From an uncultured archaeon (lineage in GTDB: Archaea > Iainarchaeota > Iainarchaeia > Iainarchaeales > DTGL01), in NCBI GenBank assembly GCA_964551725.1, contig CAZKED010000001.1, positions 42,119-106,118 on the forward strand: a stretch of 64,000 bases of DNA, given 5' to 3'. Within the stretch, counting starts at the first letter, position 1. Each line of letters opens with the position of its first letter. A program made the translations under genes and the position numbers. This document shows, piece by piece, positions 19,756 through 48,636 of this stretch. The notes under the pieces were generated by a model. The model was given only the letters and a program-made list of their open reading frames with translations, was not told where the DNA came from and searched no databases.

Positions 19756-19760
19756 ATTAA

Positions 19761-20702
19761 ATGAATGCACAGGTTTTTGGAATGGCGTCCGGAATGCTGC
19801 GGGCTTTTCTTTCAGGAAAAAAATACCTGGGACTGGAAAAGGAATTCAGGGAAGAGAGAGGCGAATCACTTCAGAAATTTCTTTCGCGGTGGTTTGCGCG
19901 GGGCGTTGTTTCCGCGCTTGTTTCTTGCGCTGCATTTCTTTTTTTTGAAATGCCTTTTTTATTTTTTGCGCTTGCCGCTGTCCTGCCTGTTGCCCTGCCT
20001 TTAGGCGCGCTTTCCCTGCAATTGTTTCTCTTTGAAAGGGAAAGGGGAAAAAAGGAGGAAGCCGTGCCCGCACTGCTTCTCCAGGCTTCCATTTTTCCAC
20101 CGAAAACGCCTGTATCGAAAATGATGGAATGTTTTGCGCTTGGGGAAAAAAATGCCTTTGGAAAGGAGTTCAAGAAAGCGGTAAGGGAAGTAAAGCGCGG
20201 GGCAAGCGCTGCGGAAGCGCTGGAAGGAATGAAAGCCAGGAACAGGGGAAGGTTTTTCCGCGAGGCAGTTGAAATGCTTTTGCTCGCGGAGGAAACGGGA
20301 ATTGAAATGAATTCTGTGCTGAGGGAGAAAGCGGAGGAAATAATCGAAGTGCAGGCCATTCTGAGAGAGCGTCTCTCGCTTCTTTCAATACAAAAAGCGA
20401 CGCTTTTGCTCGGCGGGGGAGTAATAGTGCCTTTTATTCTAGGTCTCCTGAGCGGGATGGTGCGCTCCTTTGACTTGGGGGAGTTTTCGCAAATGCTTTC
20501 AGGCAGCGTTGCGTGCAGGCAGGAAATGCTTAATGCAGCGGTTTTTGCAAACCAGGTGTTTGTTGTGGAATACGCGCTCGTTTCCTCCCTCTTCCTTTCC
20601 TTTCTGGAGGGAAAGCCCAGGAAAATTTTTCCTTACGCTTTGGTTCTTGTTCCTTTGGGTTTTGTTGTTTTTTCCCTTGCAGCGCGGGCTCCCGTAATCT
20701 GA
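19761..20702 (+). CDS. T2SS-F-domain membrane protein (TadC-like half-platform)
   Basis: The ORF lies 5 nt after the previous gene. It carries AEALEGMKARN..FFREAVEMLLLAEETGIEMNSVLREKAEEI between TM segments, which is typical of the GspF/TadC cytoplasmic domain. Confidence 0.6.
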   Translation: MNAQVFGMASGMLRAFLSGKKYLGLEKEFREERGESLQKFLSRWFARGVVSALVSCAAFLFFEMPFLFFALAAVLPVALPLGALSLQLFLFERERGKKEEAVPALLLQASIFPPKTPVSKMMECFALGEKNAFGKEFKKAVREVKRGASAAEALEGMKARNRGRFFREAVEMLLLAEETGIEMNSVLREKAEEIIEVQAILRERLSLLSIQKATLLLGGGVIVPFILGLLSGMVRSFDLGEFSQMLSGSVACRQEMLNAAVFANQVFVVEYALVSSLFLSFLEGKPRKIFPYALVLVPLGFVVFSLAARAPVI

Positions 20703-28745: not shown

Positions 28746-29285
28746 TCACCCGTGATAGAGGTAGAAAATCAACCCCATTGGAATCCAGTTGAACGCGAAC
28801 AGCAACAGAAAGCTGCCTGTTAAAGTGCAGGCAAATACCGCGAGGAAGTTTTTGGCATGCGGGTTCCATTTTTTTTCCTTCAATTTGTCCGCGAGCATCG
28901 AGCCGAGCAGTAAAAACGGGGAGAAGAGAACCGCGACGGCGAATGCAACCATGAGAATTTTGAATACTGCGTAAAACCACAAGCCCGCTGTTTCCAGGGG
29001 CGTGGCATACAGTTGTTCGGGCACTTCGCCCAAATTCCATTCCCCTGAAACAAGCGCGAGAGGGTAAACGTATGCAAGCGCGGTGAGCGCGAGGGAGAAA
29101 ACGAAAAGCGAAATGAACGCTGAAGAGAACCATTTCATTTTGAATTTTTCCGCGAGCCTTTTGCGCAGGAAAGCCGCGGGAAAGACGAGAATGAAAAACG
29201 GGATGGAAAGGACCAGCGAACCCCAGAGCAGCTGCGCAAGGGAAAGTAATAAATTCATGCCAGTGTTAATACTTATGAAGAACAT
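28746..29285 (-). CDS. Polytopic membrane protein (about 5 TM), co-oriented with and 4 nt upstream of the 1505-aa gene
   Basis: The ATG is at 29285 (MFFISINTGMNLL...). A TATA-like gtatatatta lies about 20 nt upstream. Hydrophobic helices run throughout. There is no second-Asp GxGD-type peptidase signature. Confidence 0.55.
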   Translation of the reverse strand: MFFISINTGMNLLLSLAQLLWGSLVLSIPFFILVFPAAFLRKRLAEKFKMKWFSSAFISLFVFSLALTALAYVYPLALVSGEWNLGEVPEQLYATPLETAGLWFYAVFKILMVAFAVAVLFSPFLLLGSMLADKLKEKKWNPHAKNFLAVFACTLTGSFLLLFAFNWIPMGLIFYLYHG

Positions 29286-29362
29286 TCGGCTCAATTAAAT
29301 GTATATATTAACACATTTAAATAACTTAAGGTATTAATTTAGGGGAAGAATTGAGTGGTTTT
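29286..29362. promoter_or_regulatory. Bidirectional AT-rich promoter region (aaatgtatatattaac / catttaaataac / ggtattaattta)
   Basis: The TATA-like elements were read directly between the divergent genes. Confidence 0.35.
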
Positions 29363-30049
29363 ATGGCTGAAAGAACGATAAAGGAAATGGACAGCATTTC
29401 AAGAAAGGACAAGCGCTTTTACAGGCGCAACGCCGAACTGTTCGACAAAATAAAGGAGCAGATTTTGAGAGCGGAGGGCCTGCGCGAGAGGGAGAAGAGA
29501 AAAATACTCATGCGCCTGAGATTCCAGATAGGGGAAATGCAGGAAAAAGAGGGGATTGAAATGTCCTCTGCTCTTTACGACCAGGTGAAGAAAGGCGGCA
29601 CGGATGTCGGGGAACTTGCCTCGAGGGAAGCCCGCCGGAGGGGAAGAGGAAGGGCAAAAAAATTCGGCGAGAACGATTTGAACTTTATCGCCGACAACAT
29701 TTTTTCTCAGTTAAAGGACGAAGGGCTGCCCCGCAGGAGGCGGGGTAAAAGGGCTTCCGGCAGGGAAACGCGCGGGAGAAAATACGCTTCCTGGCGGGAC
29801 AGGAAGGGAATTCCGAGCGAGAAGGAAGCCGAAGTGGAAAAAATAAAGCAGGATCTCGCGGAAAAGCTTTCGGGAAGGAGACCGCTGGAATCCCTGGAAA
29901 AGGGCGGCGAAGCGCCGTCGCTCGGGGAACTCGAAGACCTGAAGAACCTTGATGTCGAGGACATCGTGGGCGGAAAAAAGGGAAAAGCAAAAAAGAAAAA
30001 GAAGAAAGGCGAATTTGACTTGGAAGGGCTTGAAACCGATTTGGGCTGA
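29363..30049 (+). CDS. Hypothetical highly charged (K/R/E-rich) protein
   Basis: The ATG is at 29363 (MAERTIKEMD...), and the track start at 29351 is a TTG. The C-terminus carries KKGKAKKKKKKGEFDLEGL. No domain was recognised. Confidence 0.5.
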   Translation: MAERTIKEMDSISRKDKRFYRRNAELFDKIKEQILRAEGLREREKRKILMRLRFQIGEMQEKEGIEMSSALYDQVKKGGTDVGELASREARRRGRGRAKKFGENDLNFIADNIFSQLKDEGLPRRRRGKRASGRETRGRKYASWRDRKGIPSEKEAEVEKIKQDLAEKLSGRRPLESLEKGGEAPSLGELEDLKNLDVEDIVGGKKGKAKKKKKKGEFDLEGLETDLG

Positions 30050-30050
30050 T

Positions 30051-30821
30051 TTAAGGTGCAGCGGAACAGTTGAGGTATTCCTCTGATGTCAATTTACTGC
30101 CGTCAGGAGCCTGGGGCAAGGGCTTTGCGGGCCAGAACAAAAGGTCAACATATGCTTGGAAGTTGTGCTGCGTGAATTCTTCCGGTCCTTCCTCTTTGAG
30201 CTTTCTGAAGTTCACCAGAACGCTCGGGGGCTTGTTTATTTCGCCGACTTTAAGGAATAGAAGGCGGTCCAGGTCGTTGTCCGTCTTGATTTCCCCGCTT
30301 TGCTTGGGAAAGCAGTAATAGGTTTTTCTTTCCCCGGAAAATTCGTGCTCGCCTGTCTGCGTGTACTCGGCTGTGTAAAGCAGCACGAAAACGAAGGCAT
30401 TCTTCTCGTCGGCGGGAATCCAGTCCTCGTTGTCGAACTGCTGCGGCGGGATGTAAATGTAAAAGAAGTAATCGTATGCCTGCTTCAGGGGATCCATTAC
30501 CGTGCCCACTGAATCCCTGAGCCTGTCCTGCAGTCCCCCGCTCAAAGCGGAGTCGCTCGCGTAATCCTCCTTTATCATGGCAAGGAGGTAGTCGACTTCG
30601 CTTGTGTCCTCTATATTCTCGCCTGGAACTCTCGGAACGCTGGAGTAAAGAATGGTTTGAAGCGCGGAAGCGGCGTAGTCAGCACCGTAAAGGCTTTCGA
30701 GGTTCTTGTTGACGTTTATGCCGAAAGTGCCGCTTATTGAAAACATGAATGCTGAAAGCCCTGCAACAATGAGCAATAGGAACAATGCGTCTGTTATCGC
30801 CGCCTGCCCCCTGCAGTTCAT
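30051..30821 (-). CDS. Type IV pilin-like protein with a class-III signal peptide (MNCRG|QAAITDALFLLLIVAGLSAFMF)
   Basis: The internal ATG at 30821 is preceded by GGGGGA. A basic residue plus Gly is followed by a hydrophobic stretch of more than 20 aa. This is the last gene of the pilin array. Confidence 0.55.
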   Translation of the reverse strand: MNCRGQAAITDALFLLLIVAGLSAFMFSISGTFGINVNKNLESLYGADYAASALQTILYSSVPRVPGENIEDTSEVDYLLAMIKEDYASDSALSGGLQDRLRDSVGTVMDPLKQAYDYFFYIYIPPQQFDNEDWIPADEKNAFVFVLLYTAEYTQTGEHEFSGERKTYYCFPKQSGEIKTDNDLDRLLFLKVGEINKPPSVLVNFRKLKEEGPEEFTQHNFQAYVDLLFWPAKPLPQAPDGSKLTSEEYLNCSAAP

Positions 30822-30868
30822 TCCCCCACTGTGCCTGAATTCTGGCACCGCTGTTCTGCGGAATGCCT

Positions 30869-31366
30869 TCAGTCCCACAGCACCACCACCAAAAGCAGGG
30901 GTCTTATGGCAAACCCGCTTCTGACGCTTGAGTCCTGGAAAGCGAAGGGAAACTTTTTCACCATAACTTCTGTGTCGTGGCTTATTTCCCTCTCCATATT
31001 GGAGCATTCCAGGAGTTCGCCGTCTATTTCGAAAATGCCCTCGTCCTCGTTCACGAATTCCATGACGTCAAAGGTCTGCTCCAGGGGTAGTTTTACTGCC
31101 CCGACCTTGTAGTAAACGCTTATGACCTCGCTTATGCCGCCGCACAATTCGAAGAATTCGTCCGGCGTATCCATGTAGCGGTCGCCGCGCAGCCTGTCGC
31201 TTATTTCAAGGAGGCTTATCGCGTTGCTGAACTCGCGCTGCCCGCTGTCAAGTCTCTGGAAAGTTGTCGTGAATGTTGCGAAAAAAATTACAAGAGCGAA
31301 AAGTATGGGAATGAGGCTCGGCAGGTCGTCTCCTATCGGTCCAATGAATCCTTTCCTGCTTTTCAT
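30869..31366 (-). CDS. Pilin-array protein with leader MKSRKG followed by FIGPIGDDLPSLIPILFALVIFFATF. Possible atypical class-III signal.
   Basis: The ATG at 31366 is preceded by GGAGAGAAGG. A KG motif precedes the hydrophobic segment, but Asp-Asp intervenes, so the assignment is tentative. Confidence 0.4.
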   Translation of the reverse strand: MKSRKGFIGPIGDDLPSLIPILFALVIFFATFTTTFQRLDSGQREFSNAISLLEISDRLRGDRYMDTPDEFFELCGGISEVISVYYKVGAVKLPLEQTFDVMEFVNEDEGIFEIDGELLECSNMEREISHDTEVMVKKFPFAFQDSSVRSGFAIRPLLLVVVLWD

Positions 31367-31404
31367 TCTTCCGCCTTCTCTCCTTTTTTCCCGTTTTGAT
31401 TCTT

Positions 31405-32028
31405 TCAGGTTTCGGATAAAATGCAAGTGCTCGGCATGCCTCTTTCCGCTTTGACCATGTTTCCCACTGTTTGCTCGTTGTCGAGGCACGACCCCTCATA
31501 GTGGGAAGTGCACGGAATCAGGTAAAGCTTTTTTTCGCCGTGGTAGATTTCTTTTATTATTATGAGGCTGTCCATTACGGGCTCCCTTGACTGGGGGTCA
31601 AGCGTGGTTTTATCCGCATCTTCAAGGGAATTGGTCACCCTGTCAAAATCGAAAATCAAGAATTCCGCATCGGAATCGATTCTCTGGGAAGCCATCACCG
31701 GCTTTTTTTCACCGCGCGCCGGCCTCCTCGTTACTTCAACGACAAGCGTTGATTCTTCCGCGGACTCTATTTTTCGCAGGTTCATTATGTAATAAACCTG
31801 CCCTGCGTAAAGGCTTCTTATGTAGGGCTGCAGAGAGATCTCCCTTTTAATGCACAACTGGTCGCTTTCAAGCACTTCGACCATTGTCCTGCCGTTCTTC
31901 CTCACTATCCTGCTTGCCTCGCTTCCTATTGAAATCCCGTCCAGGTTATAGGTGAAAAAAATTACTATCGCAAAAAGCGCTGTTACGAGAATGAGGAGGT
32001 TGAGCTTGCTCAGGGCAAAGCCGATCAT
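31405..32028 (-). CDS. Pilin-array protein with an N-terminal hydrophobic anchor (MIGFALSKLNLLILVTALFAIVIFF)
   Basis: Its ATG overlaps the upstream stop (TGATG). There is no K/R-G site, so it could be a very short-leader pilin (MIG|F...) or simply a membrane-anchored accessory protein. Confidence 0.4.
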   Translation of the reverse strand: MIGFALSKLNLLILVTALFAIVIFFTYNLDGISIGSEASRIVRKNGRTMVEVLESDQLCIKREISLQPYIRSLYAGQVYYIMNLRKIESAEESTLVVEVTRRPARGEKKPVMASQRIDSDAEFLIFDFDRVTNSLEDADKTTLDPQSREPVMDSLIIIKEIYHGEKKLYLIPCTSHYEGSCLDNEQTVGNMVKAERGMPSTCILSET

Positions 32029-32585
32029 CAGAGTCCCTTCCTGTAAGCGCATATCACGGGAAAAGCGTGGTTCGGCGGCGTTACATTGAACAGTTCATAG
32101 CTGCCTGCCGGAATTCCCTCGAAGAAATCGTGCAATACGTATTTCGGGTCGTCCGCAGAGCGGTCCGTGCATTCTCCCGGGGAAGACTGCCCCTTGAAAT
32201 TGGTGACCAAAGGAATGTTAACGCACACCTTTCTAGCATAGCCCTGGCTGTAGTATTCCAGCGCAACGCATGAATCCCCGCCCTCACCGCAGAGCGTCGA
32301 GCACAGGCGCTTGTCGCTGTGCGCTTTCAGCTGCACTTCCGCATCCTCAAAACAGCCCGAAGGAATGCTGAACTTGAACCTCGTGGGGAAGCCGTCCCTC
32401 GTGGTTATCTGTATGTGGGATTTCAGGTCCTGGAGCGCGCTTTCAATCTCGCCCTTGCACCTCTCCTCTTGGAACACTTCTATTGCCTTATAGCCGACAA
32501 TGAGCACGAAGCCCATTACTATTATTGCCACGAGCAGTTCAAAGGGCGCCGATTCCTGCCCTTTTCTTCCCAAAAAGCCAGCCAT
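32028..32585 (-). CDS. Type IV pilin-like protein (class-III signal MAGFLGRKG|QESAPFELLVAIIVMGFVLIVG)
   Basis: This is the canonical archaeal pilin N-terminus. The track ORF extends to a GTG at 32723, and the true start is uncertain. A TATA-like tttaaatatt lies near 32795. Confidence 0.6.
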   Translation of the reverse strand: MAGFLGRKGQESAPFELLVAIIVMGFVLIVGYKAIEVFQEERCKGEIESALQDLKSHIQITTRDGFPTRFKFSIPSGCFEDAEVQLKAHSDKRLCSTLCGEGGDSCVALEYYSQGYARKVCVNIPLVTNFKGQSSPGECTDRSADDPKYVLHDFFEGIPAGSYELFNVTPPNHAFPVICAYRKGL

Positions 32586-32821
32586 AAAGAAAACCGTTAC
32601 TTCCCTATATTGCCCGCGGTCCGCGTCACTATTTCCTGCGAGCCCTGGAACATCGGCTTGATGAAGGCAATGAGCACCAGTGCGACAATCACGAGCACCA
32701 AGAGGAAATAAACCGAGGACCACTCCCCTTGCGCTTTCTCTTCACGAAAAAATCCAACCGCGCCGAGCATAGGCATCCATTAAAAGAAAGGGAAAAGGAA
32801 TATTTAAATGTTACTCGCCCG

Positions 32822-33376
32822 TCATTTTGAGTATCTCAACGCGACAAGGCAGCATGTTGCCTCGTCCTCGGTGCAGGGGCAGCCCTCAATCCATTCCGCC
32901 TTGAGGCCCTCGTTGCTGTAGTCCTCTATCGCCTGTTCCAGGAGAGTGCCTGAATCGCATAGAACGGAAAGGGTTGCCTCCCTTTTTCCCGTTACGTCGA
33001 GCGCGATTTTTTCAGGCGAACCGTTTTCCTGCCCCTCCGCGAAATCGCCGCTGTCGGCGAAATCACCCAGGCTGAGGCAGACTTTGTCGTTTGCCACTCC
33101 CCATTGCGCAATCGAAATCACTTCCTTGGAAAGCATTGTGCTTTTTTTTGAGCTGTCGAATGTTACCTTGCTCGACCTTTCGTAGCCACCCCTGTCGCTC
33201 AGCTTTTGCACGAGCTCGCCCGCTTTCTGGGCGGGTTCGTCCTTGGGGAAAAAATCCCACCATGGACCATAGATCAAGGTTAAAAGTATTCCCAGGATTG
33301 CAAGTGCAACTATTGCCGAAATCAAAAGCTTGAAAACGGAAAAGGACTGTCCTTTTTCATTGCGGAAAAAATTCAT
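32822..33376 (-). CDS. Type IV pilin-like protein (class-III signal MNFFRNEKG|QSFSVFKLLISAIVALAILGILLT)
   Basis: A GAGGTGA ribosome-binding site lies 5 nt upstream of the ATG at 33376. The C-terminus is Cys-rich (CPCTEDEATCCLVALRYSK). It is a paralogue of the next gene. Confidence 0.7.
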   Translation of the reverse strand: MNFFRNEKGQSFSVFKLLISAIVALAILGILLTLIYGPWWDFFPKDEPAQKAGELVQKLSDRGGYERSSKVTFDSSKKSTMLSKEVISIAQWGVANDKVCLSLGDFADSGDFAEGQENGSPEKIALDVTGKREATLSVLCDSGTLLEQAIEDYSNEGLKAEWIEGCPCTEDEATCCLVALRYSK

Positions 33377-33406
33377 CAGTTTCACCTCAGCATAAAAAGC
33401 AAAAAC

Positions 33407-33420
33407 GCAAAAGCGTTTGC
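33407..33420. promoter_or_regulatory. Near-palindrome GCAAAAGCGTTTGC between the TATA-like box and the pilin start codon. Candidate operator or leader hairpin.
   Basis: The dyad symmetry was read directly. The element was duplicated together with the gene (compare 34101-34114). Confidence 0.35.
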
Positions 33421-33515
33421 CAGAAGAATAGAAGGATTTCTCCTATTTAATGGTTTCTATGGGGGGTTTCGGCTGAAAAAAAACAGGCGGAATAAAAAGG
33501 GGAAAAAGGAAGCTT

Positions 33516-34064
33516 TCAGCGCTTCCTTAACGCTATGAGGCAGCACATTTCGTCCCTGCCCTCAAAATCGCAGTCGTCCGTCCACTCTTCCTCGAGCCCT
33601 TCGTATTCTCCTATTTCCTCTATGTCCGCTTCTATGAGGTCGCCCGCGTTGCAGAGCACCGAAAGTTCGACGTCCCTGCTGCCGCCCCTGTTGAAGGCTA
33701 TGAGCTGCGGAGAACCGTTCTCTTGTCCTGCTTCAAAGTCGTCTGTTTCTGAGAAATCGCCCAGGCTGAGGCATATCTGGTCGGGTGCCATTCCAACTTC
33801 CGCGGCAGCGATTATTTCACTGCTCCTCATTGTCTTTTTGTCAGCGCCAAATGTTACCACGTCTGACTTTTCATAGCCGCCCCTGTCTCTCAGTTCTCCT
33901 ACAAGCTCTGCCGCCTGCTCTGTCGGGTCTGCTTCCGTTCCAATCTGACCTATCGAGTTGATTACTGTCATCAGTATTCCGAGGATTGCCATTGCAATAA
34001 TCGCCGCAATGAGAAGCTTGAATGCTGAAAACGCCTGACCTCTTTCGTTTCGCAAAAAAACCAT
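33516..34064 (-). CDS. Type IV pilin-like protein (class-III signal MVFLRNERG|QAFSAFKLLIAAIIAMAILGILMT), tandem paralogue of 32822-33376
   Basis: The two paralogues share RDRGGYE, ICLSLGDF...DFAEGQENGSP, LSVLC and CCL[IV]ALR. A GAGGTGA ribosome-binding site lies before the ATG at 34064. Confidence 0.7.
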   Translation of the reverse strand: MVFLRNERGQAFSAFKLLIAAIIAMAILGILMTVINSIGQIGTEADPTEQAAELVGELRDRGGYEKSDVVTFGADKKTMRSSEIIAAAEVGMAPDQICLSLGDFSETDDFEAGQENGSPQLIAFNRGGSRDVELSVLCNAGDLIEADIEEIGEYEGLEEEWTDDCDFEGRDEMCCLIALRKR

Positions 34065-34100
34065 CCACATTCACCTCTGAATTCAGCGCATAAGCACAGC

Positions 34101-34114
34101 GCAAAACGTTTTGC
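34101..34114. promoter_or_regulatory. Perfect 14-bp palindrome GCAAAACGTTTTGC upstream of the pilin gene. Candidate operator.
   Basis: Read directly. The flanking roughly 50 bp (tgccag(g)aagaata(a)gga..tt(c)(t)cctatttaat(g/t)gtttc) are also conserved with the copy near 33400-33460. Confidence 0.4.
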
Positions 34115-34187
34115 CAGGAAGAATAAGGAAATTCACCTATTTAATTGTTTCTTTTTTGCGCGGCGCTTCCTGGGCGCTTCCGATTCG

Positions 34188-34640
34188 CTATATGCGGGGT
34201 TTTTTGCCGAAGGAAACATAGCATTCCGTGTTGCATTCGCTTCCCGAAGGCTGCTTGATGCACTGGTAGTAAACGTCAATCTGCATTCTCTGCCTCAATT
34301 CAATGCCCGCGCCGTCGCCCTTTATTTCCGCGTTCGCCATTTCCGTTGCCTGGAATTCAACGCACTCGCTGTCGAAATGGAACTGCCTCTCAAGGTCCAG
34401 GGCATAGTAGGACCCCTCCTTGAACATGAGGTTTTTCCTTTCCACTAATCCCTCGGAGCCGTCTTCCGAGGGCGCGCTCAGCGCATATTTGAAGCCCTCG
34501 TAGTAGCGCTCCATGCTTATAACGTACTGCATTTCGCTGAAGTACGTTATCGCGCCGAGGATTATGACGAAAATCATTGCCGCCATTATTACCGCCACCA
34601 GCAACCTGAAAGGAAGGAACTGCCCTTTTTCCCCGGGCAA
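34188..34640 (-). CDS. Type IV pilin-like protein (class-III signal MPGEKG|QFLPFRLLVAVIMAAMIFVIILG), first gene of the pilin array
   Basis: It starts with a TTG abutting the stop of the upstream platform gene. A KG-Q site is followed by a long hydrophobic helix. The rest of the protein contains Cys (ECNTECY). Confidence 0.6.
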   Translation of the reverse strand: MPGEKGQFLPFRLLVAVIMAAMIFVIILGAITYFSEMQYVISMERYYEGFKYALSAPSEDGSEGLVERKNLMFKEGSYYALDLERQFHFDSECVEFQATEMANAEIKGDGAGIELRQRMQIDVYYQCIKQPSGSECNTECYVSFGKKPRI

Positions 34641-37190
34641 TCAGAATCCTCCTCCGAAAGAACTCACAACAATATTGGTTACAAAGAAGGAAACAGTGAA
34701 AACAATCATTGAAATGGGCACGTACTTTGCGAGGTTGACTTTAACTAACAGGTTGTTGTCCTCCTCTATTTTCGTGGTGTAATAAATCACAATCACCGCT
34801 ATTTCGACGATGTAAACAAGCATTATCGCAAGGAACATGGGCGCGGAAACCATTGAAAGAAGCGCCTCGGGGTTAATCAACTGCTCGAAGGTTGTAACGT
34901 TGAACGTGCCGAGCCCCGCGCCGGCTGCCGCTTCGCTACTCTCGAAAAGGTCGTCCCCTGCAAAGGAGGCGAACAGCCGCACGATTACCTTGAACAATGA
35001 AGTGGTGATTCCGAGCACTACCGGTGCAATGAAAACAATCATTGTGCGCATTAACTGGGAGATGTCCATCACGAGGTTCTTCAGCATTTTTGAAACCTTT
35101 TCAGAATTCTCAAGCTGCAGGGACATTGAAACAAGGGTTCTGGCGGCAACATTCACTCCGAGTTTTACCGAGTCAACGAGCACTTTCATTCCCACTTTTA
35201 TTGTTTTTGACGGAATGTTCACCAGCGCGCCGTAGCGCGGGTCGAAAACCGCGGACTCCAATGGCATGCCCATCAGGTGGATGTTGTCGAGTGCTCTCCC
35301 AAAAATTCTGTCGGAGATTTTGTAGTTGGGTAGGAATTCCTTCACGTGCCTCAGCGCTTCCTCCATTGGCTTGTTTTCCCCCAAGCGCGAGGCGATAATG
35401 TACAGTGAGTCCTTGAATTCGGATTCGAGCTGCATTATTTCAACCTGCACCTTGCGCCTGTAAATGTTGGAGTAGTATACGAAAAAGTAAATGCATACTG
35501 CTGTGGTCAGCATCAGCCCGAAGATTAAATTGTTGGGCGTGGTGTCGTTTTCCTTCTGCATGAAGAAAACGGTTTTCCTGTAATAAAGGGCTTTTTCTGC
35601 CGCAATTCTTGCAAGCTCTGATTTGAGTCTCGCGGTCGACCAGCCGGGGTTCTGCTGCTCAAGTGCTTTTGCGTAATCCTCGCCCACGTATTTTCTCAGT
35701 TCCGAGAGCTCGGTGGCGTTGGAGGAGTACTCCCTGAAAAATTCGTTGTAGACATCCCCGCCTTCAGTGCTTCCGGCGGGCGGCAGTGCAAAGTAGTCCT
35801 CGTTGTAACCGCCTTCTCGGAGCACGTCGGCTTCCCGCCTGTCCGCGGGAAGCAATTGCTCGTCGGGAAGCAGCGGTTCGTTCCTTCCTTCAATCCCGTA
35901 GCCCGTGGACTTCGGGGGAATTCCTTCAACGTGCAGGAACCATGAAACGCTGACTCCGGCAATTAAAATTATTGCAATGGGAATCCATACGCTCATTTCC
36001 CTCCTGCCCAAAACCATTCTCCCCTTTTTGGGCAGTCCCGGATAGTTTTCCGGAATTTCCGGCGGCTCGTAAGTGGGTGGTCTCTGCCTCACCACCTGCA
36101 CTGCAAAAAAGAAGACGCCCAGCGGAATGCCAACATTGTACAAGAGCACCAGCACGACGGGATTTGCGAGAGGCGAACCCGTGACGAACGCGCCTATGGG
36201 AAGCACGATGAATAAGATTATTGGCAGCAGGACGCCGAGGTAGAACAGTATGGCGGAAGGCATTGAAAGGTCGCGGGCGTACTGCTCCATTTTTTCCTTT
36301 ACCGCGGAAAGAAGCCCTTCAGTGGTTTTGTCGAGGAGGGCATACCTCTTTGCTTCGGTGTCCTCGAGCACTGAAGCGCGGATGCGCATTAGTGCGAGCT
36401 TGAATTCCTTGCTGTACTTTCCCCACTTGTAGGCGAGTTCGTCCAGCCCTTCGGAGAGTGTTGGGTAAACGCCGATCTCAACGCTCCAGAGCAATGACCT
36501 GAAATCCGCGGAAATTTTTCCGCGTCCGTGTTCGGCTGCAAACTCAACCGCTTTTTCGAGGTTGGGGGTCAGCTTGAGGGACATTACCATGTACCCAATC
36601 ATTTCCGGAATATAGCCAAGAGCGCGCCTTTGCTCTGTTTTTATAACGCTCACGGGATAGCGCTGCACGAGCCTCGGCAGGAAAAAGACGAGAAGGAACA
36701 CCGGCATGAGTATGTAGATTATCCACATGGGTCCCGCGAGGGAAGAGAGCATTCCCGAAAGAGGAGTGAACCAGACAAGCATTACAAAGGCAAAGCTCAG
36801 CACTAGAGAGAGGAGCATTGTGAATTTGACAGCGGCGGAGAACTCCTCGGGTTTTATGTCCCAGCCGAGGAAATCAACGGCATTCCTGAATTCTTCCGTG
36901 AATTTTGCCCCTTTTCCCAGCGAGGGCATTGTCCTGTAAGCGCGCTTGCAGAAGCGAACGAAGCGGGGCTCTTTCTTCTTGAAGAGCTTTTTTTCCCCTT
37001 TTTCGAATTCCTCCGAGCTGAACTCTATTTCCTTGTAAAGCCTGCCCGGGGAAACCCTTCTCTTCGGCTTGGGTCTGGTGTGCAAAGGTCTTGCCTCGCG
37101 CCTGCTTTCCCTTTCAGGCGCTTTGTCAATCTTCCTGCGCCTTTCGTACCTTCGAGGCATTAAAAATTCCTCACTTGGAAAACCGGCCAA
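34641..37190 (-). CDS. FlaJ/TadC-like polytopic platform protein (T2SS-F domains), 849 aa
   Basis: A basic N-terminus is followed by multiple TM helices flanking cytoplasmic helical domains (LEKAVEFAAEHGRGKISADFRSLLWSVEIGV...LSEGLDELAYKW, and later a second similar domain). It overlaps the ATPase gene by 20 nt. Confidence 0.75.
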   Translation of the reverse strand: MAGFPSEEFLMPRRYERRRKIDKAPERESRREARPLHTRPKPKRRVSPGRLYKEIEFSSEEFEKGEKKLFKKKEPRFVRFCKRAYRTMPSLGKGAKFTEEFRNAVDFLGWDIKPEEFSAAVKFTMLLSLVLSFAFVMLVWFTPLSGMLSSLAGPMWIIYILMPVFLLVFFLPRLVQRYPVSVIKTEQRRALGYIPEMIGYMVMSLKLTPNLEKAVEFAAEHGRGKISADFRSLLWSVEIGVYPTLSEGLDELAYKWGKYSKEFKLALMRIRASVLEDTEAKRYALLDKTTEGLLSAVKEKMEQYARDLSMPSAILFYLGVLLPIILFIVLPIGAFVTGSPLANPVVLVLLYNVGIPLGVFFFAVQVVRQRPPTYEPPEIPENYPGLPKKGRMVLGRREMSVWIPIAIILIAGVSVSWFLHVEGIPPKSTGYGIEGRNEPLLPDEQLLPADRREADVLREGGYNEDYFALPPAGSTEGGDVYNEFFREYSSNATELSELRKYVGEDYAKALEQQNPGWSTARLKSELARIAAEKALYYRKTVFFMQKENDTTPNNLIFGLMLTTAVCIYFFVYYSNIYRRKVQVEIMQLESEFKDSLYIIASRLGENKPMEEALRHVKEFLPNYKISDRIFGRALDNIHLMGMPLESAVFDPRYGALVNIPSKTIKVGMKVLVDSVKLGVNVAARTLVSMSLQLENSEKVSKMLKNLVMDISQLMRTMIVFIAPVVLGITTSLFKVIVRLFASFAGDDLFESSEAAAGAGLGTFNVTTFEQLINPEALLSMVSAPMFLAIMLVYIVEIAVIVIYYTTKIEEDNNLLVKVNLAKYVPISMIVFTVSFFVTNIVVSSFGGGF

Positions 37191-39441
37191 CCATTGATTC
37201 CCGCACCCAGTCCTTCCATTCTTTCAGCACTTCCCTGTAGTTGACCTTTCCTTTTTCCTCGATTTCCTTTTCCTTCAAGAGCATTAATTTGTCGTGCGCC
37301 AGCGCGGAGTTTTCCGCTTCAAGAATCTCGGGCAGGGAATGCTCTTCTTTCAGTTTCACCAGGAATTCCTTGGACTCGCCGCGCATTCTAATCTCCTCCC
37401 ACATCTGCTGCATTGAGAGACCGGAAACCCTGCTTATTTTTTCGAAAATGTCCGATTCCTTCAAGTTGTCTTCCAGCAGTTCGAGCCTGTCCTTTTTGGC
37501 ATCATAGCGCATTAAGTCCAGCAACCCGCCTTCTCTTTCCGGGTCCTCAACCCAGTGCTTTTTTATTTCGGTTACTTCAACAACCCTGCGGTGGCTTTTT
37601 AGGGAACCGCCGAACCTTATGGGGCGGGCGGTAACAACAATGTCCGTTGCCTTGAAGGAGGTTGTCGGAACATCCAAGTCATTCACGACGCGGTCCCAGA
37701 CAGCGTAAGCGGAATCGCCGTGAATCGTTCCCATTACAACGTTGCCTGCAGCCCCAATGCGCATTGCCTCGTACAAAGTGCGCGCTTCCGTGGAGCGCAC
37801 TTCACCGAGCACCAGAGCGCTGTCGCCCAGGCGCAGGGCGGTGCGAAGTGCCTCTTCTGGGGCAACCTCTGTCTCGGTTTTTGAGACTCCTATGGGCGAG
37901 CGTGTTTTGAGCCTCTGTATGTTGAAGCCGATTCTCTTCATGTACTCCGCGGGAATTTCAAGCGTGTCCTCCTGGAGTATTATTCTCGAGTTCTTGGGAA
38001 TTTCGAGAATGTTCGCTGCCATCAGCGAGGTCTTGCCCGAGCCCCTGGAACCTGTAACGAGCATTGTTGTCTTGTTGTCGATGAAAAAGGAAATGAGCCC
38101 GGCTGCCATCGGATTCAAAAATTTCACGTCAATAAACTGTGCCAAAGTCCAGGGCGTGACCTTGTGCAGGCGGAAAGCGAATGCGACTCCGTCCGGCGCC
38201 AAAGGCGGCCCTATGGTTGCAATTCTTGTCTCCAGTTCCGGCAAATCGAAGTCGAGCACCGGGTGCGCTTCGTCGAATGGTCTTCCTGACATTGCGCGCA
38301 TTTTTGTTATGAGCGTCTGGGCTTCCTTTTCCGTGTAAAGAATGTTCGTGGAGCACTGCCCGAAATCCGAGTGCACCAAGTAAACCGGATTCTGCCCTAT
38401 TGGTGAATCCAAAAAAACATCCGTGAGCCTGCGGTCGGAGAGAATTATTTCAAGTATTCCGTAGCCCACGGTATAGCGCGCGACGATTTCGCTCAGTTCC
38501 TCCGCCTCTCTCTTCGTGATTTTTATTCCGTTTGTTTTCGCGACATCGAGGATTGTGCTCTGGTAAATGCGTTCGAAGTAATCCCGGGATTTTGCCACGG
38601 TGCTCAGCGACGCCTTTCCGGGAGTGTAGGCTGCAACGATTTCCTTTGTCTTGCTGAGAACGAAATATTTTTCGGGGGAAAGGGTGTATTCGGGCGGATT
38701 GATGAAGTATAGGTTCATTGTTTTGTTTGGGTGGTTGAATATCTGCACTGTGGTGTTCTTTACAGTATATTCGTCCAATAGCTCCAACTCTTCCTCGTCC
38801 TTGAACATTAACATCGAGCCTATGAAAGACGGCTTTATCTGGGCTTCGAAGAACACCCTGTATAAATCCTTTGTGTCCGGTATTTCCTCGAGTTCTGTCA
38901 AAAAGCGCTTTACTTTCTGTATGAGCGCGGTTTTTTCGAATTCGTCTTTCATGTATGCGAGGGTGCGCAGGTAAACCTTGCTTCCCTGCTTGTACTGTTC
39001 GCTGCCTTCCTTGTACCTGGCTTTTTCTTTCTGGAGTTCGAGCACGCAGGTGAAGTAGGCTTTTATGGGATCGTATGCGATGAGGTCGTGCGCTATCGTT
39101 ACCGCCATTTTGTGCCTGGGACCCAAAAACATTTCGTCCGCGCCTGGCTCGCCCAGATTCTTCGACGCCCAGACGGTTTCCGCGTCAAATTTCTGCATCA
39201 GTTCTACTATTTCCTTGAGGAGTGCAGTCTGCGCCTGGTCGTAAACGCGCTCGTAGGCTTCCGCCAGCACTATCAGGTCCGCTTCCATTTCGGACATCGC
39301 TTTTATTACGTGGTAACGGCATGCTTGGTCGTCCGCTATCGAGGTGCCGTAAACGCATTCCCTGCAGTCGAATAGCAGGTGGCGCTTGTTGGCTTCCTCT
39401 TTAACGGTGTAATCCCCTACCTTGAACCCGCCTATTTTCAT
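37171..39441 (-). CDS. FlaI/PilB-like type IV pilus/secretion ATPase with a long N-terminal extension
   Basis: The core carries Walker A LVTGSRGSGKTSLMAANI, Walker B RIILQEDTLEIP and His-box GDSALVLGEVRSTEARTLYEAMRIGAAGNVVMGTIHG. The N-terminal roughly 330 aa carry CRECVYGTSIADDQACRYH. The ATG at 39441 is preceded by AGGTG, and the track GTG is at 39459. Confidence 0.85.
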   Translation of the reverse strand: MKIGGFKVGDYTVKEEANKRHLLFDCRECVYGTSIADDQACRYHVIKAMSEMEADLIVLAEAYERVYDQAQTALLKEIVELMQKFDAETVWASKNLGEPGADEMFLGPRHKMAVTIAHDLIAYDPIKAYFTCVLELQKEKARYKEGSEQYKQGSKVYLRTLAYMKDEFEKTALIQKVKRFLTELEEIPDTKDLYRVFFEAQIKPSFIGSMLMFKDEEELELLDEYTVKNTTVQIFNHPNKTMNLYFINPPEYTLSPEKYFVLSKTKEIVAAYTPGKASLSTVAKSRDYFERIYQSTILDVAKTNGIKITKREAEELSEIVARYTVGYGILEIILSDRRLTDVFLDSPIGQNPVYLVHSDFGQCSTNILYTEKEAQTLITKMRAMSGRPFDEAHPVLDFDLPELETRIATIGPPLAPDGVAFAFRLHKVTPWTLAQFIDVKFLNPMAAGLISFFIDNKTTMLVTGSRGSGKTSLMAANILEIPKNSRIILQEDTLEIPAEYMKRIGFNIQRLKTRSPIGVSKTETEVAPEEALRTALRLGDSALVLGEVRSTEARTLYEAMRIGAAGNVVMGTIHGDSAYAVWDRVVNDLDVPTTSFKATDIVVTARPIRFGGSLKSHRRVVEVTEIKKHWVEDPEREGGLLDLMRYDAKKDRLELLEDNLKESDIFEKISRVSGLSMQQMWEEIRMRGESKEFLVKLKEEHSLPEILEAENSALAHDKLMLLKEKEIEEKGKVNYREVLKEWKDWVRESMVGRFSK

Positions 39442-39459
39442 TTCCGCACCTTTTTGCAC

Positions 39460-39584
39460 CCTTTGCGCGTTTTCCGCGTGCTGCAGAAAAAAGGGCTTAA
39501 GTCATTATTAAACCTATCTCTCCCCGCCGCGGGAGCGCAAAAAAAAGGGTTAAATTGCTTTTCGTTTTTAATTTCACTGGTAGA
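39460..39584. promoter_or_regulatory. Divergent promoter region between the ATPase operon (-) and the sortase-like gene (+)
   Basis: It contains tttaataatgac (minus-strand TATA-like) and two AAAAAAGGG(C/T)TTAA motifs at about 39487 and 39540. Confidence 0.3.
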
Positions 39585-40217
39585 ATGGCGCGCAGGAAAA
39601 ATAATGCAGATGCTTTCGCCGCCGCGCGCGCGGCGGCGGAAAAATGGCTGGCATTCGAGAGAAAGAATGCAAAAAGCGAGGCGTTCAAGGCAGCAAAATT
39701 TCTGGCGGCATTCGCCCTCGTTTTTTTCGGGCTGAATTTTTTTCTCTCTTTTGTGCCGCTGCAGTTTTTCGAGGTGCCGGTGGCAGTGGCAATAAAGGGA
39801 TTCCTTGCAACGCAGAGCGTTGGGGCAAGAATCATTGCAACGGAGCCCGTTATAGTGGCGGCGGAAACAGGGCTTGATGTGTCAGTATCATACCTCTGCA
39901 CAGGGCTGCTCGAAAGCGTTGTGTGGATTGGAATAATCGCCGCTTCCCTGGGCGTGGAGTGGAAGAAGCGCTTGGCAGGCGCGTTCCTCGGTTTGGCTGG
40001 ACTGGCGGCATTCAATCTTTTGAGAATTTTCACAACGCTCTATTTCGTGCTCAACTCGGATGTCAGCACGGTGACTTTTATACATAACACATTTTTCAGA
40101 GCCGCATTATTCGCTGTATTGGTCGGATTTTACGGAATATGGTTCTGGCTTTCGGTCAGGAGCGAAATGACCAGAGGGAGGGAAAAGGGAAAAAGGCAAA
40201 AGAAACAAAAAAACTAA
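39585..40217 (+). CDS. Polytopic membrane protein with exosortase/archaeosortase-like features (small ArtE-like variant?)
   Basis: The 210-aa ORF has a cytoplasmic Ala-rich N-terminus, at least 5 TM helices, Cys115 in SYLCTGL, Arg157 in FNLLRIF (an N-x-x-R-I context, C-to-R spacing 42), and a basic tail. It sits immediately upstream of the giant-protein array. The assignment is by motif only. Confidence 0.4.
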   Translation: MARRKNNADAFAAARAAAEKWLAFERKNAKSEAFKAAKFLAAFALVFFGLNFFLSFVPLQFFEVPVAVAIKGFLATQSVGARIIATEPVIVAAETGLDVSVSYLCTGLLESVVWIGIIAASLGVEWKKRLAGAFLGLAGLAAFNLLRIFTTLYFVLNSDVSTVTFIHNTFFRAALFAVLVGFYGIWFWLSVRSEMTRGREKGKRQKKQKN

Positions 40218-48624: not shown

Positions 48625-48636
48625 AGGGGGAAAAAC

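Follow-up and report, generated by a model that had tools for sequence, protein, structure and literature searches.

A conserved array of eight pilin-like genes behind a secretion ATPase and a platform gene in an iainarchaeotal archaeon: a probable type IV filament subunit cluster

The host of this locus is a tiny, uncultured DPANN archaeon of the phylum Iainarchaeota (Diapherotrites), and the window, i.e., the whole 64,000-nucleotide stretch of DNA analyzed here, carries a run of small genes immediately behind a secretion ATPase and a platform gene. What do these genes encode, and which of their products would build the filament? As a whole, the region is best explained, with good confidence, as that half of an archaeal type IV filament (pilus) gene cluster which encodes the subunits. 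Such machines are already known and the present example is an ordinary one, for which there was no earlier annotation.

Organization and conservation of the cluster

Eight pilin-like genes in total follow the ATPase and platform genes. In the list below a slash marks the predicted cleavage site, and positions -1 and +1 flank it.

37171..39459, minus: secretion ATPase of a type IV filament machine, 762 aa (Pfam T2SSE, E = 6.7e-17)
34641..37190, minus: PilC/TadC-like platform protein, 849 aa (T2SSF in orthologues)
34188..34640, minus: g1, pilin-like, 150 aa, MPGEKG/QFLPFRLL ([KR]G/Q conserved)
33516..34064, minus: g2, pilin-like, 182 aa, RG/QAFSAFKLLIAAIIA (orthologues and AF2 model)
32822..33376, minus: g3, paralogue of g2, 184 aa, KG/QSFSVFKLLISAIVA (52% aa identity)
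32597..32776, minus: gS, helix-only pilin-like, 57-59 aa, EEKA/QGEWSSVYFLLVLVIVALVLIAFIKPMF... (JGI gene call, conservation)
32028..32585, minus: g4, pilin-like, 185 aa, 8 Cys, RKG/QESAPFELLVAIIV (Q+1 conserved)
31405..32028, minus: g5, 207 aa, M-I-G/FALSKLNLLILV, elsewhere given as M-L-G/F (N-terminal conservation)
30869..31366, minus: g6, pilin-like, 165 aa, MKSRKG/FIGPIGDDLPSLIPILFALVIFF (orthologue conservation)
30051..30821, minus: g7, pilin-like, 256 aa, RG/QAAITDALFLLLIVAG (orthologues and AF2 model)
28746..29294, minus: conserved multi-pass membrane protein, 182 aa (cassette end in most loci)

The best solved relatives of the ATPase are A. fulgidus GspE 2oap (4.8e-32), CpaF (1e-22) and FlaI (1e-19). 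The platform protein is apparently a fused double T2SSF protein. Pfam T2SSF is matched by 28 of 32 platform orthologues at 40-52% identity (best E = 2.4e-6), and each half of the platform can be weakly aligned (hhalign E 0.007-0.011) to a T2SSF protein that the window encodes; the window's own platform copy falls below the T2SSF threshold and has no Pfam match. The 182-aa membrane protein matches neither Pfam nor NCBIfam, and it is not an obvious prepilin peptidase since the GxGD motif is absent. A crude GxGD[.][KR] motif scan of the window and of ~1.3 Mb of sequence from related loci detected no prepilin peptidase.

Relatives were found in 123 instances in species-representative genomes, most of them titled Ca. 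Iainarchaeum and the rest mostly archaeal MAGs. Among the ~80 species-level loci of Iainarchaeota with enough length to reveal it, most keep the cassette order (T2SSE ATPase, fused double-T2SSF platform, g1, g2, gS, g4, g5, g6, g7, membrane protein). Seven families (g1, g2, gS, g4, g5, g6 and g7) are conserved throughout the phylum in set, order and N-terminal motifs. The earlier note, which was made from the sequence alone, had described seven tandem pilin-like genes; its seven ORFs behind the platform gene are real, and the small gene gS between g3 and g4 was overlooked.

N-termini of the subunits

Seven of the eight products, g5 being the exception, start with a short basic leader followed by [KR][GA], then Q or F and ~20 hydrophobic residues. 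The predicted [KR][GA]/Q or F site and the hydrophobic helix are kept in more than 90% of 53-97 orthologues in six of the seven families. When all six frames were scanned for ORFs of at least 50 aa with [KR][GA][QF] followed by at least 13 strongly hydrophobic residues out of 18, only 8 of the 346 ORFs of the window were class-III-like, and 7 of these 8 are consecutive in the array, a clustering far from chance.

The class-III N-termini previously quoted at 34640, 34064, 33376, 32585 and 30821 are all present. Two further N-termini had been called atypical, of which that of g6 is a canonical KG/F: its motif KG/F[IL]GPIGDDLPS is kept in 55-56 of 56 orthologues, with G-1 in 55 of 56 and G+3, G+6, D+7, D+8 and P+10 in all 56. 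The other is that of g5, the leader of which consists of three residues, none of them basic. Among 54 g5 orthologues S+4 and K+5 are invariant, while position -1 is G in 34 and E in 9; this E in place of G suggests that g5 is possibly unprocessed, and its N-terminus may be either cleaved or an uncleaved anchor. At position -1, g1 orthologues have G in 58 of 62, and all 61 g4 orthologues have Q+1 within a QESAPFELL motif. An alternative GTG start for g7 lies at 30878.

Similarity between the families is limited to the N-terminal 30-60 residues. AF2 models of g2 (pLDDT 83, helix 8-39 of 32 residues) and g7 (pLDDT 82, helix 3-58 of 56 residues) each combine a long N-terminal helix with an alpha/beta head domain. 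The globular head of g2 has 5 near-invariant Cys, and g2 has CC at the C-terminus, C170 and C252 are invariant in g7, and Cys counts are even in g1, g4, g5 and g6. The conserved Cys are compatible with the proposal that the heads are disulfide-stabilized, the disulfides themselves being predicted. As foreseen for genuine pilin-like proteins, inspection by eye reveals no conserved AxA Sec site in the sequences of the window and of loci L004 and L005, and none of the array genes in the window is frameshifted. Motif conservation, adjacency to the ATPase and platform genes, the helix-plus-head models and the lack of a visible AxA site together support the pilin-like reading. A class III signal (prepilin) peptidase from a gene elsewhere would cut after G or A, the platform and the ATPase would lift the subunits out of the membrane, and the subunits would polymerize via their N-terminal helices.

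History of the g2 and g3 paralogues

The paralogy of g2 and g3 is borne out by 52% aa identity over 182 aa (E = 3e-63), and so is the conservation upstream of both, where 53 nt are common at 74% identity and the ribosome-binding site GAGGTGA is identical. The duplication had been described as a recent one that copied promoter and palindrome. Both elements were indeed copied, the palindrome imperfectly, but the event was not recent: nucleotide identity is ~62-73% and uniform through promoter and coding sequence, the same codon is used at 55 of 95 identical residues, and the sister species L006 retains a 26-codon remnant of a g3-type C-terminus. On these comparisons the duplication is old, with g3 as the additional copy. 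The g2 protein is 65% identical to its L006 orthologue. Copy number in related loci, which the earlier note had proposed to check, does vary: g2 is tandemly duplicated in ~10 loci, with copies 32-51% identical. We picture g2 and g3 as exposed, fast-evolving and dispensable head-bearing subunits of variable copy number, a view that the g2 deletion in L086 (see below) also favours.

Proposed transcription units

The intergenic regions contain the following putative signals.

34138..34145, minus: TATA-box-like ATTAAATA with AAACA in front, putative g2 promoter (motif count, conservation)
33444..33451, minus: TATA-box-like ATTAAATA, putative g3 promoter (motif count, repeat family D3)
32801..32808, minus: TATA-box-like TTTAAATA, putative promoter of gS-g4-g5-g6-g7, 24 nt before the ATG at 32776
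33476..33507, minus: three oligo-T runs (T5, T5, T8), archaeal terminator-like, directly after the g2 stop
29974..30000, minus: three oligo-T runs (T5, T6, T6) following the stop of g7, where the subunit operon would end
34101..34114, no strand: perfect 14-nt palindrome GCAAAACGTTTTGC, ~23 nt downstream of the g2 TATA box
33407..33420, no strand: imperfect copy of the palindrome, GCAAA CGCT TTTGC, arms kept and 3 of 4 central bases changed

The motif [AT]TT[AT]AATA occurs only 11 times on both strands of the 64 kb, always in intergenic positions. The TATA-like box of g2 is also kept in front of g3 and, in L006, in front of g2, and loci L004 and L006 have an equivalent TATA box 21-30 nt ahead of the gS start. 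Clusters of T5 or longer follow only g2 and g7; no such run was found after g3. The TTG start of g1 abuts the platform stop codon and, where loci are rearranged, g1 remains attached to the ATPase and platform genes. Beginning with g4, neighbouring genes touch or overlap (the g5 ATG and the g4 stop codon share 1 nt). Between a stop codon and the cleavage site that follows, median distances are 97 nt for g1-g2, 96 nt for g2-gS, 68 nt for gS-g4 and 13-20 nt from g4 to g7. Six rearranged loci (L007, L011, L013, L014, L030 and L058) are broken exactly between g1 and g2 and between g2 and gS. As TATA boxes, oligo-T runs and rearrangement breakpoints agree, we infer three expression units: ATPase-platform-g1; g2 (and g3); and gS-g4-g5-g6-g7. 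The g2 unit would be self-contained, with its own TATA box, a ~50-nt leader, GAGGTGA and three oligo-T runs, and g3 would have the same promoter layout. The gS-g4-g5-g6-g7 transcript is probably leaderless.

A candidate core subunit of the filament

The small gene gS (EEKA/QGEWSSVY...) is kept in 67 loci, with Q+1, Y+8 and KPMF near-invariant, and is the most conserved subunit (62-68% identity vs 30-42% for the others). Its product would be about 43 aa long after the predicted cleavage; some members are labelled 'ComGC' or 'UPF0333 family' by JGI. Its helix-only build, short mature length and highest conservation make gS the leading candidate for the filament's main or core subunit. The remaining products, g1 and g4-g7, would be minor pilins of low abundance with a part in priming or capping the filament.

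Alternatively, g2 could be the fibre-building major pilin with g3 as an alternative or co-polymerizing variant; gS would then be either a minor subunit or a small assembly factor in the membrane. According to Makarova et al. 2016 (PMC4858521), genes of major pilins typically stand alone and have several paralogues, hallmarks that g2 fits: both g2 and g3 come with a TATA box and a ribosome-binding site of their own, g2 ends in a strong oligo-T terminator, it stands by itself in rearranged loci and is duplicated more often than the other genes, and its model is a pilin-like helix with a head. However, the sole copy of g2 in the sister population L086 (2 samples) is frameshifted by a 25-bp deletion, with full-length calls retained for gS and g4-g7, which also weakens the earlier idea of alternative major subunits. 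Additionally, g3 is only a remnant in L006, the first 10 positions of mature g2 include K at +7 and are free of acidic residues, and gS is far more conserved and has its own promoter as well. A major role for g2 is therefore possible but doubtful, and we retain gS as the core candidate.

The palindrome at the predicted g2 and g3 start sites

The perfect palindrome sits near the expected transcription start of g2. GCAAA-N4-TTTGC has only two matches in the 64 kb vs 0.32 expected. A position at or just past the predicted start, together with 5-nt arms kept in both copies around a centre of which 3 of 4 bases differ, is stem-loop-like and could point to a 5'-UTR RNA hairpin acting in mRNA stability or translation. 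Yet the predicted hairpins are weak and no better than shuffled sequences (-3.8 kcal/mol, z = -0.49; -5.2 kcal/mol, z = -1.9), the preferred fold of g3 is a shifted stem, and the corresponding position in L006 holds a 12-nt insertion and another dyad, A4-N4-T4. A dimeric DNA-binding protein would account equally well for half-sites that are kept around a variable centre. We consider the hairpin unlikely; a protein operator is the more likely function of the dyad.

Neighbouring surface proteins and a possible secretion role

39555..40217, plus: exosortase/archaeosortase-family gene (TIGR04178, 29.7 bits, cut-off 23)

This gene is divergent from the ATPase gene and its adjacency to the cluster is conserved; the loci contain 47 ORFs of the family, and orthologues match Pfam Exosortase_EpsH. 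Genes for giant surface proteins (1505-2776 aa) also adjoin the cluster, and both linkages are phylum-wide. These linkages, the many subunit types and the deposition of 2oap, the best solved match of the ATPase, under the name 'type II secretion system protein' would suit a short pseudopilus that exports or displays the giants with the archaeosortase, instead of a long adhesive pilus. This reading is improbable. Archaea have no outer membrane to cross, and the giants carry their own N-terminal signal peptide (1505 aa) or signal anchors (2776 and 2403 aa). Linkage is not function, and large adhesins also accompany the true pili of archaeal clade 1 (PMC4858521).

A last reading, in which these would be ordinary membrane proteins, Sec-exported or anchored at the N-terminus, with an incidental [KR]G/Q, is scarcely credible. 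In its favour, none of the subunits has a match among curated Pfam or NCBIfam families or solved pilin structures, and the motif scan detected no peptidase. Against it, the motif occupies one and the same position in six independent families from ~80 species, the genes lie immediately behind the ATPase and platform genes, 7 of the 8 motif-bearing ORFs of the 64 kb are contiguous, and visual inspection of the window, L004 and L005 shows no conserved AxA.

Comparison with known systems

Flp of Tad pili and, in Methanococcus, the small major pilin of the Epd type would be the analogues of gS. The major pilins of Epd systems are short and devoid of a globular domain (MMP1685 has 74 aa including the leader), clade 1 major pilins have about 70 aa, and Gln at +1 is required by EppA (PMC4187195, PMC4858521, bioRxiv 10.64898/2026.04.22.720090). 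The locus would represent an uncharacterized archaeal type IV filament system, to which the Epd/Tad-like systems are the closest.

Gene content of the locus

The pilin-like array reported in the earlier note is real and its reading as pilins is well supported, short of biochemical proof, but three corrections are needed: the genes number eight, the duplication among them is old, and the N-terminus of one supposedly atypical product is canonical. Together with the ATPase and platform genes in front of it, the array is well supported as a predicted, unannotated archaeal type IV filament system. After the 762-aa and 849-aa ORFs, a series of tightly spaced minus-strand ORFs runs to 30051. Reading the ORFs of the window placed all seven genes of the original description where they had been reported, with the N-termini quoted for them, and revealed a small gene that had been overlooked between the third and the fourth. 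The eight genes are designated g1, g2, g3, gS, g4, g5, g6 and g7 in array order, g3 being an extra copy of g2 and gS the small gene. The latter is called as a gene in the JGI annotation of an identical metagenome contig, the window sequence recurring identically on JGI metagenome contigs.

Core genes and the added small gene (↓, predicted cleavage site)
37171-39459, minus strand: secretion ATPase, 762 aa; Pfam T2SSE, E = 6.7e-17
34641-37190, minus strand: platform, 849 aa; fused double PilC/TadC type by reading of its orthologues
32597-32776, minus strand: gS, ORF of 57-59 aa between g3 and g4; ...FFREEKA↓QGEWSSVYFLLVLVIVALVLIAFIKPMFQGSQEIV...

[quoted passage not shown] The window copy of the platform has no Pfam (below threshold), NCBIfam or PDB sequence match of its own, and an HMMER profile built from 54 platform orthologues missed the T2SSF proteins of the window, only weak hhalign signals being obtained. 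Its family was settled by scanning the orthologues against Pfam one by one: 28 of 32 (40-52% identity) match T2SSF, with a best E-value of 2.4e-6. Since each half also aligns, weakly, with a T2SSF protein encoded in another part of the window (hhalign), we read the 849-aa protein as a fused double PilC/TadC-type platform, and the T2SSF/PilC/TadC component of the TFF superfamily is represented through these orthologues.

A scan for class III signals ([KR][GA][QF] followed by at least 13 strongly hydrophobic residues in 18) gave 8 matches when applied to the six-frame ORFs of 50 aa or more, of which the window has 346. Seven are consecutive, namely g1, g2, g3, gS, g4, g6 and g7, so the pattern is not due to chance; the eighth and sole match outside the array is a 578-aa ORF at 48621-50357. 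Scanning the whole 64 kb detected neither tRNA genes nor Rfam families.

A seven-family cassette conserved across the phylum

Related loci were sought by a pattern scan with an alignment of the g2 family, using one genome per GTDB species. Of 123 relatives found, 80 were kept; most are MAGs whose titles read Candidatus Iainarchaeum or Diapherotrites, and Ca. Iainarchaeum andersonii, Ca. Forterrea and the complete AR10 genome are among the 80. Every ORF of the related loci was then classified with per-gene HMMs derived from three orthologous loci. The resulting gene order is a sortase-family gene in the opposite orientation, then ATPase, platform, g1, g2, gS, g4, g5, g6, g7 and a membrane protein, and it is retained in most loci long enough to display it. 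Consequently, the array is a conserved seven-family cassette and not a local oddity, the window carrying eight genes because g2 is present twice.

Predicted prepilin signals and subunit architecture

Conservation of the putative cleavage sites was judged over 53-97 orthologues per family. The class III motif is kept in more than 90% of the orthologues of g1, g2, gS, g4, g6 and g7, and the short basic leader, G or A at -1 and hydrophobic helix of about 20 residues that make up such a signal were found across the set, g5 being ambiguous.

Conserved N-terminal motifs and Gln at +1 in orthologues
g1: [KR]G↓QF; 48/62
g2: [KR]G↓QAF.AFKLL; 91/97
gS: [RK][AG]↓Q[SG]EWSS.Y; 65/69
g4: [KR][GA]↓QESAPFELL; 61/61
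g6: KG↓F[IL]GPIGDDLPS
g7: [KR][GA]↓QAA.TDAL; 53/53

The g6 product, previously called atypical, has a canonical site, and its hydrophobic stretch merely begins about 11 residues later. The same description does suit g5, whose N-terminus (M-L-G↓F-T-L-S-K-L-N-L-L-I-L-V) is indeed unusual: S+4 and K+5 are invariant, and G stands at -1 in just 34 of 54 orthologues. PibD is reported to cleave leaders of three to four residues (PMC4187195), so g5 is possibly processed; its product may be cleaved by a class III peptidase or else serve as an uncleaved anchor. No conserved AxA Sec site was seen by eye in any family in the sequences of the window and of two orthologous loci, L004 and L005.

Similarity between families is confined to the first 30-60 residues, as expected for predicted pilins that have nothing but the assembly helix in common. 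AlphaFold models of g2 (pLDDT 83) and g7 (pLDDT 82) show long N-terminal helices (residues 8-39 and 3-58, respectively) followed by alpha/beta heads, and neither model matched a solved pilin structure. Five Cys are near-invariant in g2, including a terminal CC, C170 and C252 are invariant in g7, and Cys numbers are even in g1, g4, g5 and g6, a pattern compatible with the disulfide-stabilised heads originally proposed. None of the eight subunits, nor the membrane protein, matched a Pfam or NCBIfam family. Having no Pfam match, the subunits also do not match PF04021/UPF0333, the class III signal-peptide family of Pfam to which the small methanogen pilins belong.

An A24 class III signal peptidase was detected neither by Pfam among the larger ORFs of the window nor by a crude GxGD motif scan of the window and the related loci searched (about 80). 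The 182-aa membrane protein was considered for this role but, lacking a conserved Asp/GxGD motif, was rejected. Likewise, g2 was rejected as an exosortase/archaeosortase substrate: it ends with CC, 4-5 hydrophobic residues and R/K, a tail with too few residues to form a TM helix, which the model shows as a beta-strand in the head, and it does not show the tripartite sorting signal of motif, TM helix of about 20 residues and basic tail.

An old duplication in a variable family

The proposed paralogy of g2 and g3 is borne out by 52% protein identity; the claim that the duplication is recent is not. From the promoter through to the stop codon, nucleotide identity stays level at ~62-73%, and synonymous sites have diverged, the same codon being used in only 55 of 95 identical residues. 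Moreover, the single g2 gene of L006, the orthologous locus of the sister species, is nearer to g2 of the window (65% identity) than g3 is (51%). The decisive evidence comes from L006, the nearest species: downstream of its g2 lies a 26-codon remnant (1330-1407; IKPEWASDCPCIEDEAMCCLIALRYAH, then a stop codon) that is 65% identical to the g3 C-terminus and carries its RY ending. The duplication is thus older than the split of the window and L006 species, and the g3-type copy was lost afterwards by deletion in L006. Uniform divergence that includes the promoter, synonymous divergence and this remnant together led us to reject recent duplication or gene conversion. As a side observation, GC content is ~51% in the window and 39% over the 7-kb L006 contig, a large shift between closest relatives (g2 65% identical) despite the same gene order.

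Pilin copy number does vary among orthologous loci, a check that the earlier note had recommended. About ten further loci carry g2 as a tandem pair whose members are 32-51% identical. In most such pairs, one member closely resembles a relative's single gene and its partner is divergent; in two species (loci L052 and L074) g4 is tandemly duplicated instead. A further locus, L086, is identical to L006 across the ~550 bp of g2 compared, apart from a 25-bp deletion. This deletion frameshifts its only g2 copy (6001-6518) into ORFs of 110 and 77 aa and was seen in 2 samples, while gS and g4-g7 are still called full length. The sister lineage of the window shows g2-family decay. Based on the tandem copies, the L006 remnant and the L086 deletion, the g2 family is the variable, and apparently dispensable, member of the subunit set.

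Predicted transcription units and the upstream dyad

The TATA-like motif [AT]TT[AT]AATA occurs just 11 times in the 64 kb, every time in an intergenic position. Three copies lie in the array, each with AAC[AC] in front, upstream of g2 (34145), g3 (33451) and gS (32808). In g2 and g3 the box is followed by a leader of ~50 nt with an identical GAGGTGA ribosome-binding site, a layout also found in L006. The gS box lies 24 nt before the ATG, a spacing that is 21-30 nt in L004 and L006, and so short a distance suggests a leaderless transcript. On the mRNA strand, runs of T5 or longer cluster only behind g2 (33507-33476) and g7 (30000-29974), with three runs in each cluster, and no such cluster is present behind g1 or g3. 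For the phylum as a whole, the interval separating a stop codon from the cleavage site that follows has a median length of 97 nt between g1 and g2, 96 nt between g2 and gS and 68 nt between gS and g4, but only 13-20 nt within the stretch g4 to g7, and rearranged loci break exactly between g1 and g2 and between g2 and gS. Three independent lines (TATA boxes, oligo-T runs and breakpoints) point to three predicted modules: ATPase-platform-g1, g2, and gS-g4-g5-g6-g7.

Dyad upstream of g2
34101-34114: perfect palindrome GCAAAACGTTTTGC, beginning ~23 nt past the TATA box of g2, close to where transcription is expected to start

The g3 copy of this dyad retains the 5-nt arms and has three of the four central bases changed, while L006 carries a different A4-N4-T4 dyad and a 12-nt insertion at this position. 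An RNA hairpin found no support, the fold being weak and no better than that of shuffled sequence, with g3 preferring a shifted stem. No further copy exists in the window, so that the dyad is confined to two paralogous sites and is not a repeated regulatory motif. With low confidence, we favour a protein operator over an RNA element. Retention of the dyad over a long time argues that the upstream region is under selection and not simply a young copy.

The 5' leaders also contain a conserved TTATGC, in g2 (34085-34095), g3 (33386-33397) and L006 g2 (~700-715). It starts a mini-ORF of 2-4 codons (ATG CGC TGA; ATG CTG AGG TGA; ATG CTA TGC AAC TAA, respectively), which in g3 overlaps the ribosome-binding site and could be either a chance occurrence or a small regulatory uORF.

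Which subunit builds the filament

We give gS roughly an even chance of being the main filament subunit. Its product is helix-only, has ~43 aa after predicted cleavage and lacks Cys. No other subunit approaches its degree of conservation (62-68% identity versus 30-42% for the rest); KPMF, Q+1 and Y+8 are near-invariant in 67 loci, and the gS gene comes first in its predicted operon, behind its own predicted promoter. Reported small major pilins agree with this size and form, which counts as evidence for gS: MMP1685 has 74 aa including a 12-aa leader (PMC4187195), clade 1 major pilins have ~70 aa (PMC4858521), and the Epd pilin has no globular domain, like Flp (bioRxiv 2026.04.22.720090). A main subunit encoded by g2 is distinctly less probable, a tentative alternative: this gene has the gene-level hallmarks of a major pilin, as it stands alone with its own promoter and terminator and has paralogues, but it decays in the sister lineage. 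The remaining probability falls to an undecided or mixed main subunit.

Membership of gS in the Flp or UPF0333 families was rejected. JGI free-text names on a few gS relatives read 'ComGC' or 'UPF0333 family', which speaks for gS as a main subunit, but gS and 10 relatives gave no significant Pfam family; Flp_Fap came up for one distant gS-family member only, at E = 0.044 and 14 bits, below the cut-off of 32. An exhaustive gS profile search returned 94 clusters, all of small proteins, with no bridge to Flp/UPF0333 or to any large family. More distant gS relatives begin MRG↓SEW.P.Y.

Neighbouring genes

Genes around the cassette
17195-20702, plus strand: second type IV filament-like core, a 597-aa T2SSE ATPase followed by two T2SSF genes (264 and 313 aa)
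24224-28741, minus strand: 1505-aa protein at the cassette end; N-terminal signal peptide, C-terminal tail ...LPSLPENALELLFFLSLLIGAVLLVRRRILIVRKKN
29351-30049, plus strand (L004 13488-15221; L005 13238-14164): K/R/E-rich, highly charged protein, convergent gene
39555-40217, plus strand: exosortase/archaeosortase-family gene (TIGR04178, 29.7 bits), also in loci L003-L060
40294-48624 and 50620-57831, plus strand (L003 11294-15403): giant proteins beside the sortase, with a common N-terminus
48621-50357, plus strand: 578-aa ORF overlapping the end of the 2776-aa gene; class-III-like start NERA↓FNLFTALLGFVLIILTS

The archaeosortase-family gene is kept beside the cluster and adjoins g2 directly in ~13 rearranged loci; no sortase substrate signal was identified, and the giants beside it have no C-terminal sorting signal. 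They share an N-terminal cytoplasmic part of ~45 residues with a repeated 'D.L(D/E).(K/R)GIP' that ends 'RGIPS[LF]P' and is followed by one TM helix, which may be a sortase recognition element or a family-specific anchor. The product of the 578-aa ORF may be a large pilin-like adhesin. The 1505-aa protein has no Pfam domain, and its tail is made up of motif, TM helix and basic cluster, like an exosortase/archaeosortase sorting signal. The charged-protein gene lies between g7 and the membrane protein in the three loci examined, and a zinc ribbon ends its L004 and L005 products and is absent from that of the window; it may encode a cytoplasmic regulator. In the second core (17195-20702), a 4Fe-4S ferredoxin domain (Fer4, E = 1.6e-9) forms the N-terminal part of the ATPase, genes for a giant protein of 3140 aa and a protein of 547 aa lie upstream, and no pilin-like ORFs were found after the core.

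Attachment to other cells is thought to be the way of life of most DPANN archaea, with type IV filaments as prime candidates for making the contact. We consider it unlikely, though worth stating, that the cassette, the archaeosortase-like gene and the flanking giants form one conserved Iainarchaeota attachment module, in which a gS-built Tad/Epd-like filament would carry or deploy giant adhesins to make contact with host cells or surfaces. If true, the gS family ([GA]↓Q/S-EW..Y...KPMF) would be a separate DPANN minimal-pilin lineage, bearing on the archaeal origin of Flp/Tad pilins. The locus leaves the understanding of type IV filaments unchanged. DPANN filament subunits have hitherto been unannotated 'dark matter', and for Iainarchaeota a phylum-wide parts list is now available. 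It comprises seven subunit families, each with its cleavage motif, among them a minimal pilin that is helix-only and a variable subunit that bears a head, together with three predicted transcription units. With this list, hundreds of MAG proteins can be annotated and searches of proteomes and cryo-tomograms guided.

Comparison with known systems

The kind of object is known. Makarova, Wolf and Koonin (2019, Fig. 2A) described 'dark-matter' islands of DPANN type IV pili, illustrated by one locus, in which ATPase and TadC genes are followed by signal-peptide proteins unlike known pilins and inferred to be pilins (PMC6393860). The Iainarchaeota locus similarly combines a recognisable ATPase/TadC-type core with unrecognisable inferred pilins. 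In the literature searched, we found no description of the seven-family cassette, the gS family, the three-unit structure or the g2 copy-number variation.

As in the PilA paralogues of Haloferax volcanii and other archaeal major pilins, among which lineage-specific duplications are frequent, the N-terminal helix is conserved while the heads have diverged (PMC4858521; bioRxiv 2026.04.22.720090). Unlike PilA, g2 and g3 are in tandem, each carry a copy of the conserved promoter and dyad and are apparently dispensable in the sister lineage, and the Iainarchaeota subunits have no DUF1628-type N-terminus.

The bacterial Tad/Flp pilus shares with the locus a helix-only subunit (~45 aa) whose mature N-terminus has one acidic and one aromatic residue close by, a CpaF-related ATPase (E = 1e-22) and several pseudopilin-like subunits encoded downstream. 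However, the G↓xxxxEY motif of Flp (Flp_Fap) is absent, gS having [AG]↓Q[SG]EWSS.Y, the locus has no TadV, RcpA or TadZ genes, and both host and promoters are archaeal.

The Epd pilus of Methanococcus maripaludis and its relatives, or archaeal TFF 'system 1' (clade 1), resembles the cassette in its class III signals with Gln at +1, as in EppA substrates; the requirement of EppA for this residue has been described (PMC4187195), and g1, g2, gS, g4 and g7 conform to it. Further likenesses are a very small major-pilin-type subunit with no globular domain, at least five additional class III proteins as minor pilins, and additional membrane proteins and large adhesin-like proteins close by (PMC4858521, PMC4187195, bioRxiv 2026.04.22.720090). 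By contrast, the Iainarchaeota locus has a single fused 849-aa platform gene where Epd has two separate ones, and neither the EppA peptidase nor the FleN/MinD ATPase, the cassette being devoid of a peptidase in all of about 80 loci. Its small subunit leads the predicted minor-pilin operon whereas that of Epd stands alone, and an archaeosortase-like gene is a neighbour. In the literature, the small major pilins of methanogens are assigned to arCOG06620, a curated family to which neither Pfam nor the profile search connected gS. Given the fused platform, the locus without a peptidase and subunits with no family-level match, membership of the cassette in either system is not demonstrable; it works like an archaeal type IV filament system, and by analogy its closest counterparts are the Epd pilus or 'system 1' and the bacterial Tad pilus.
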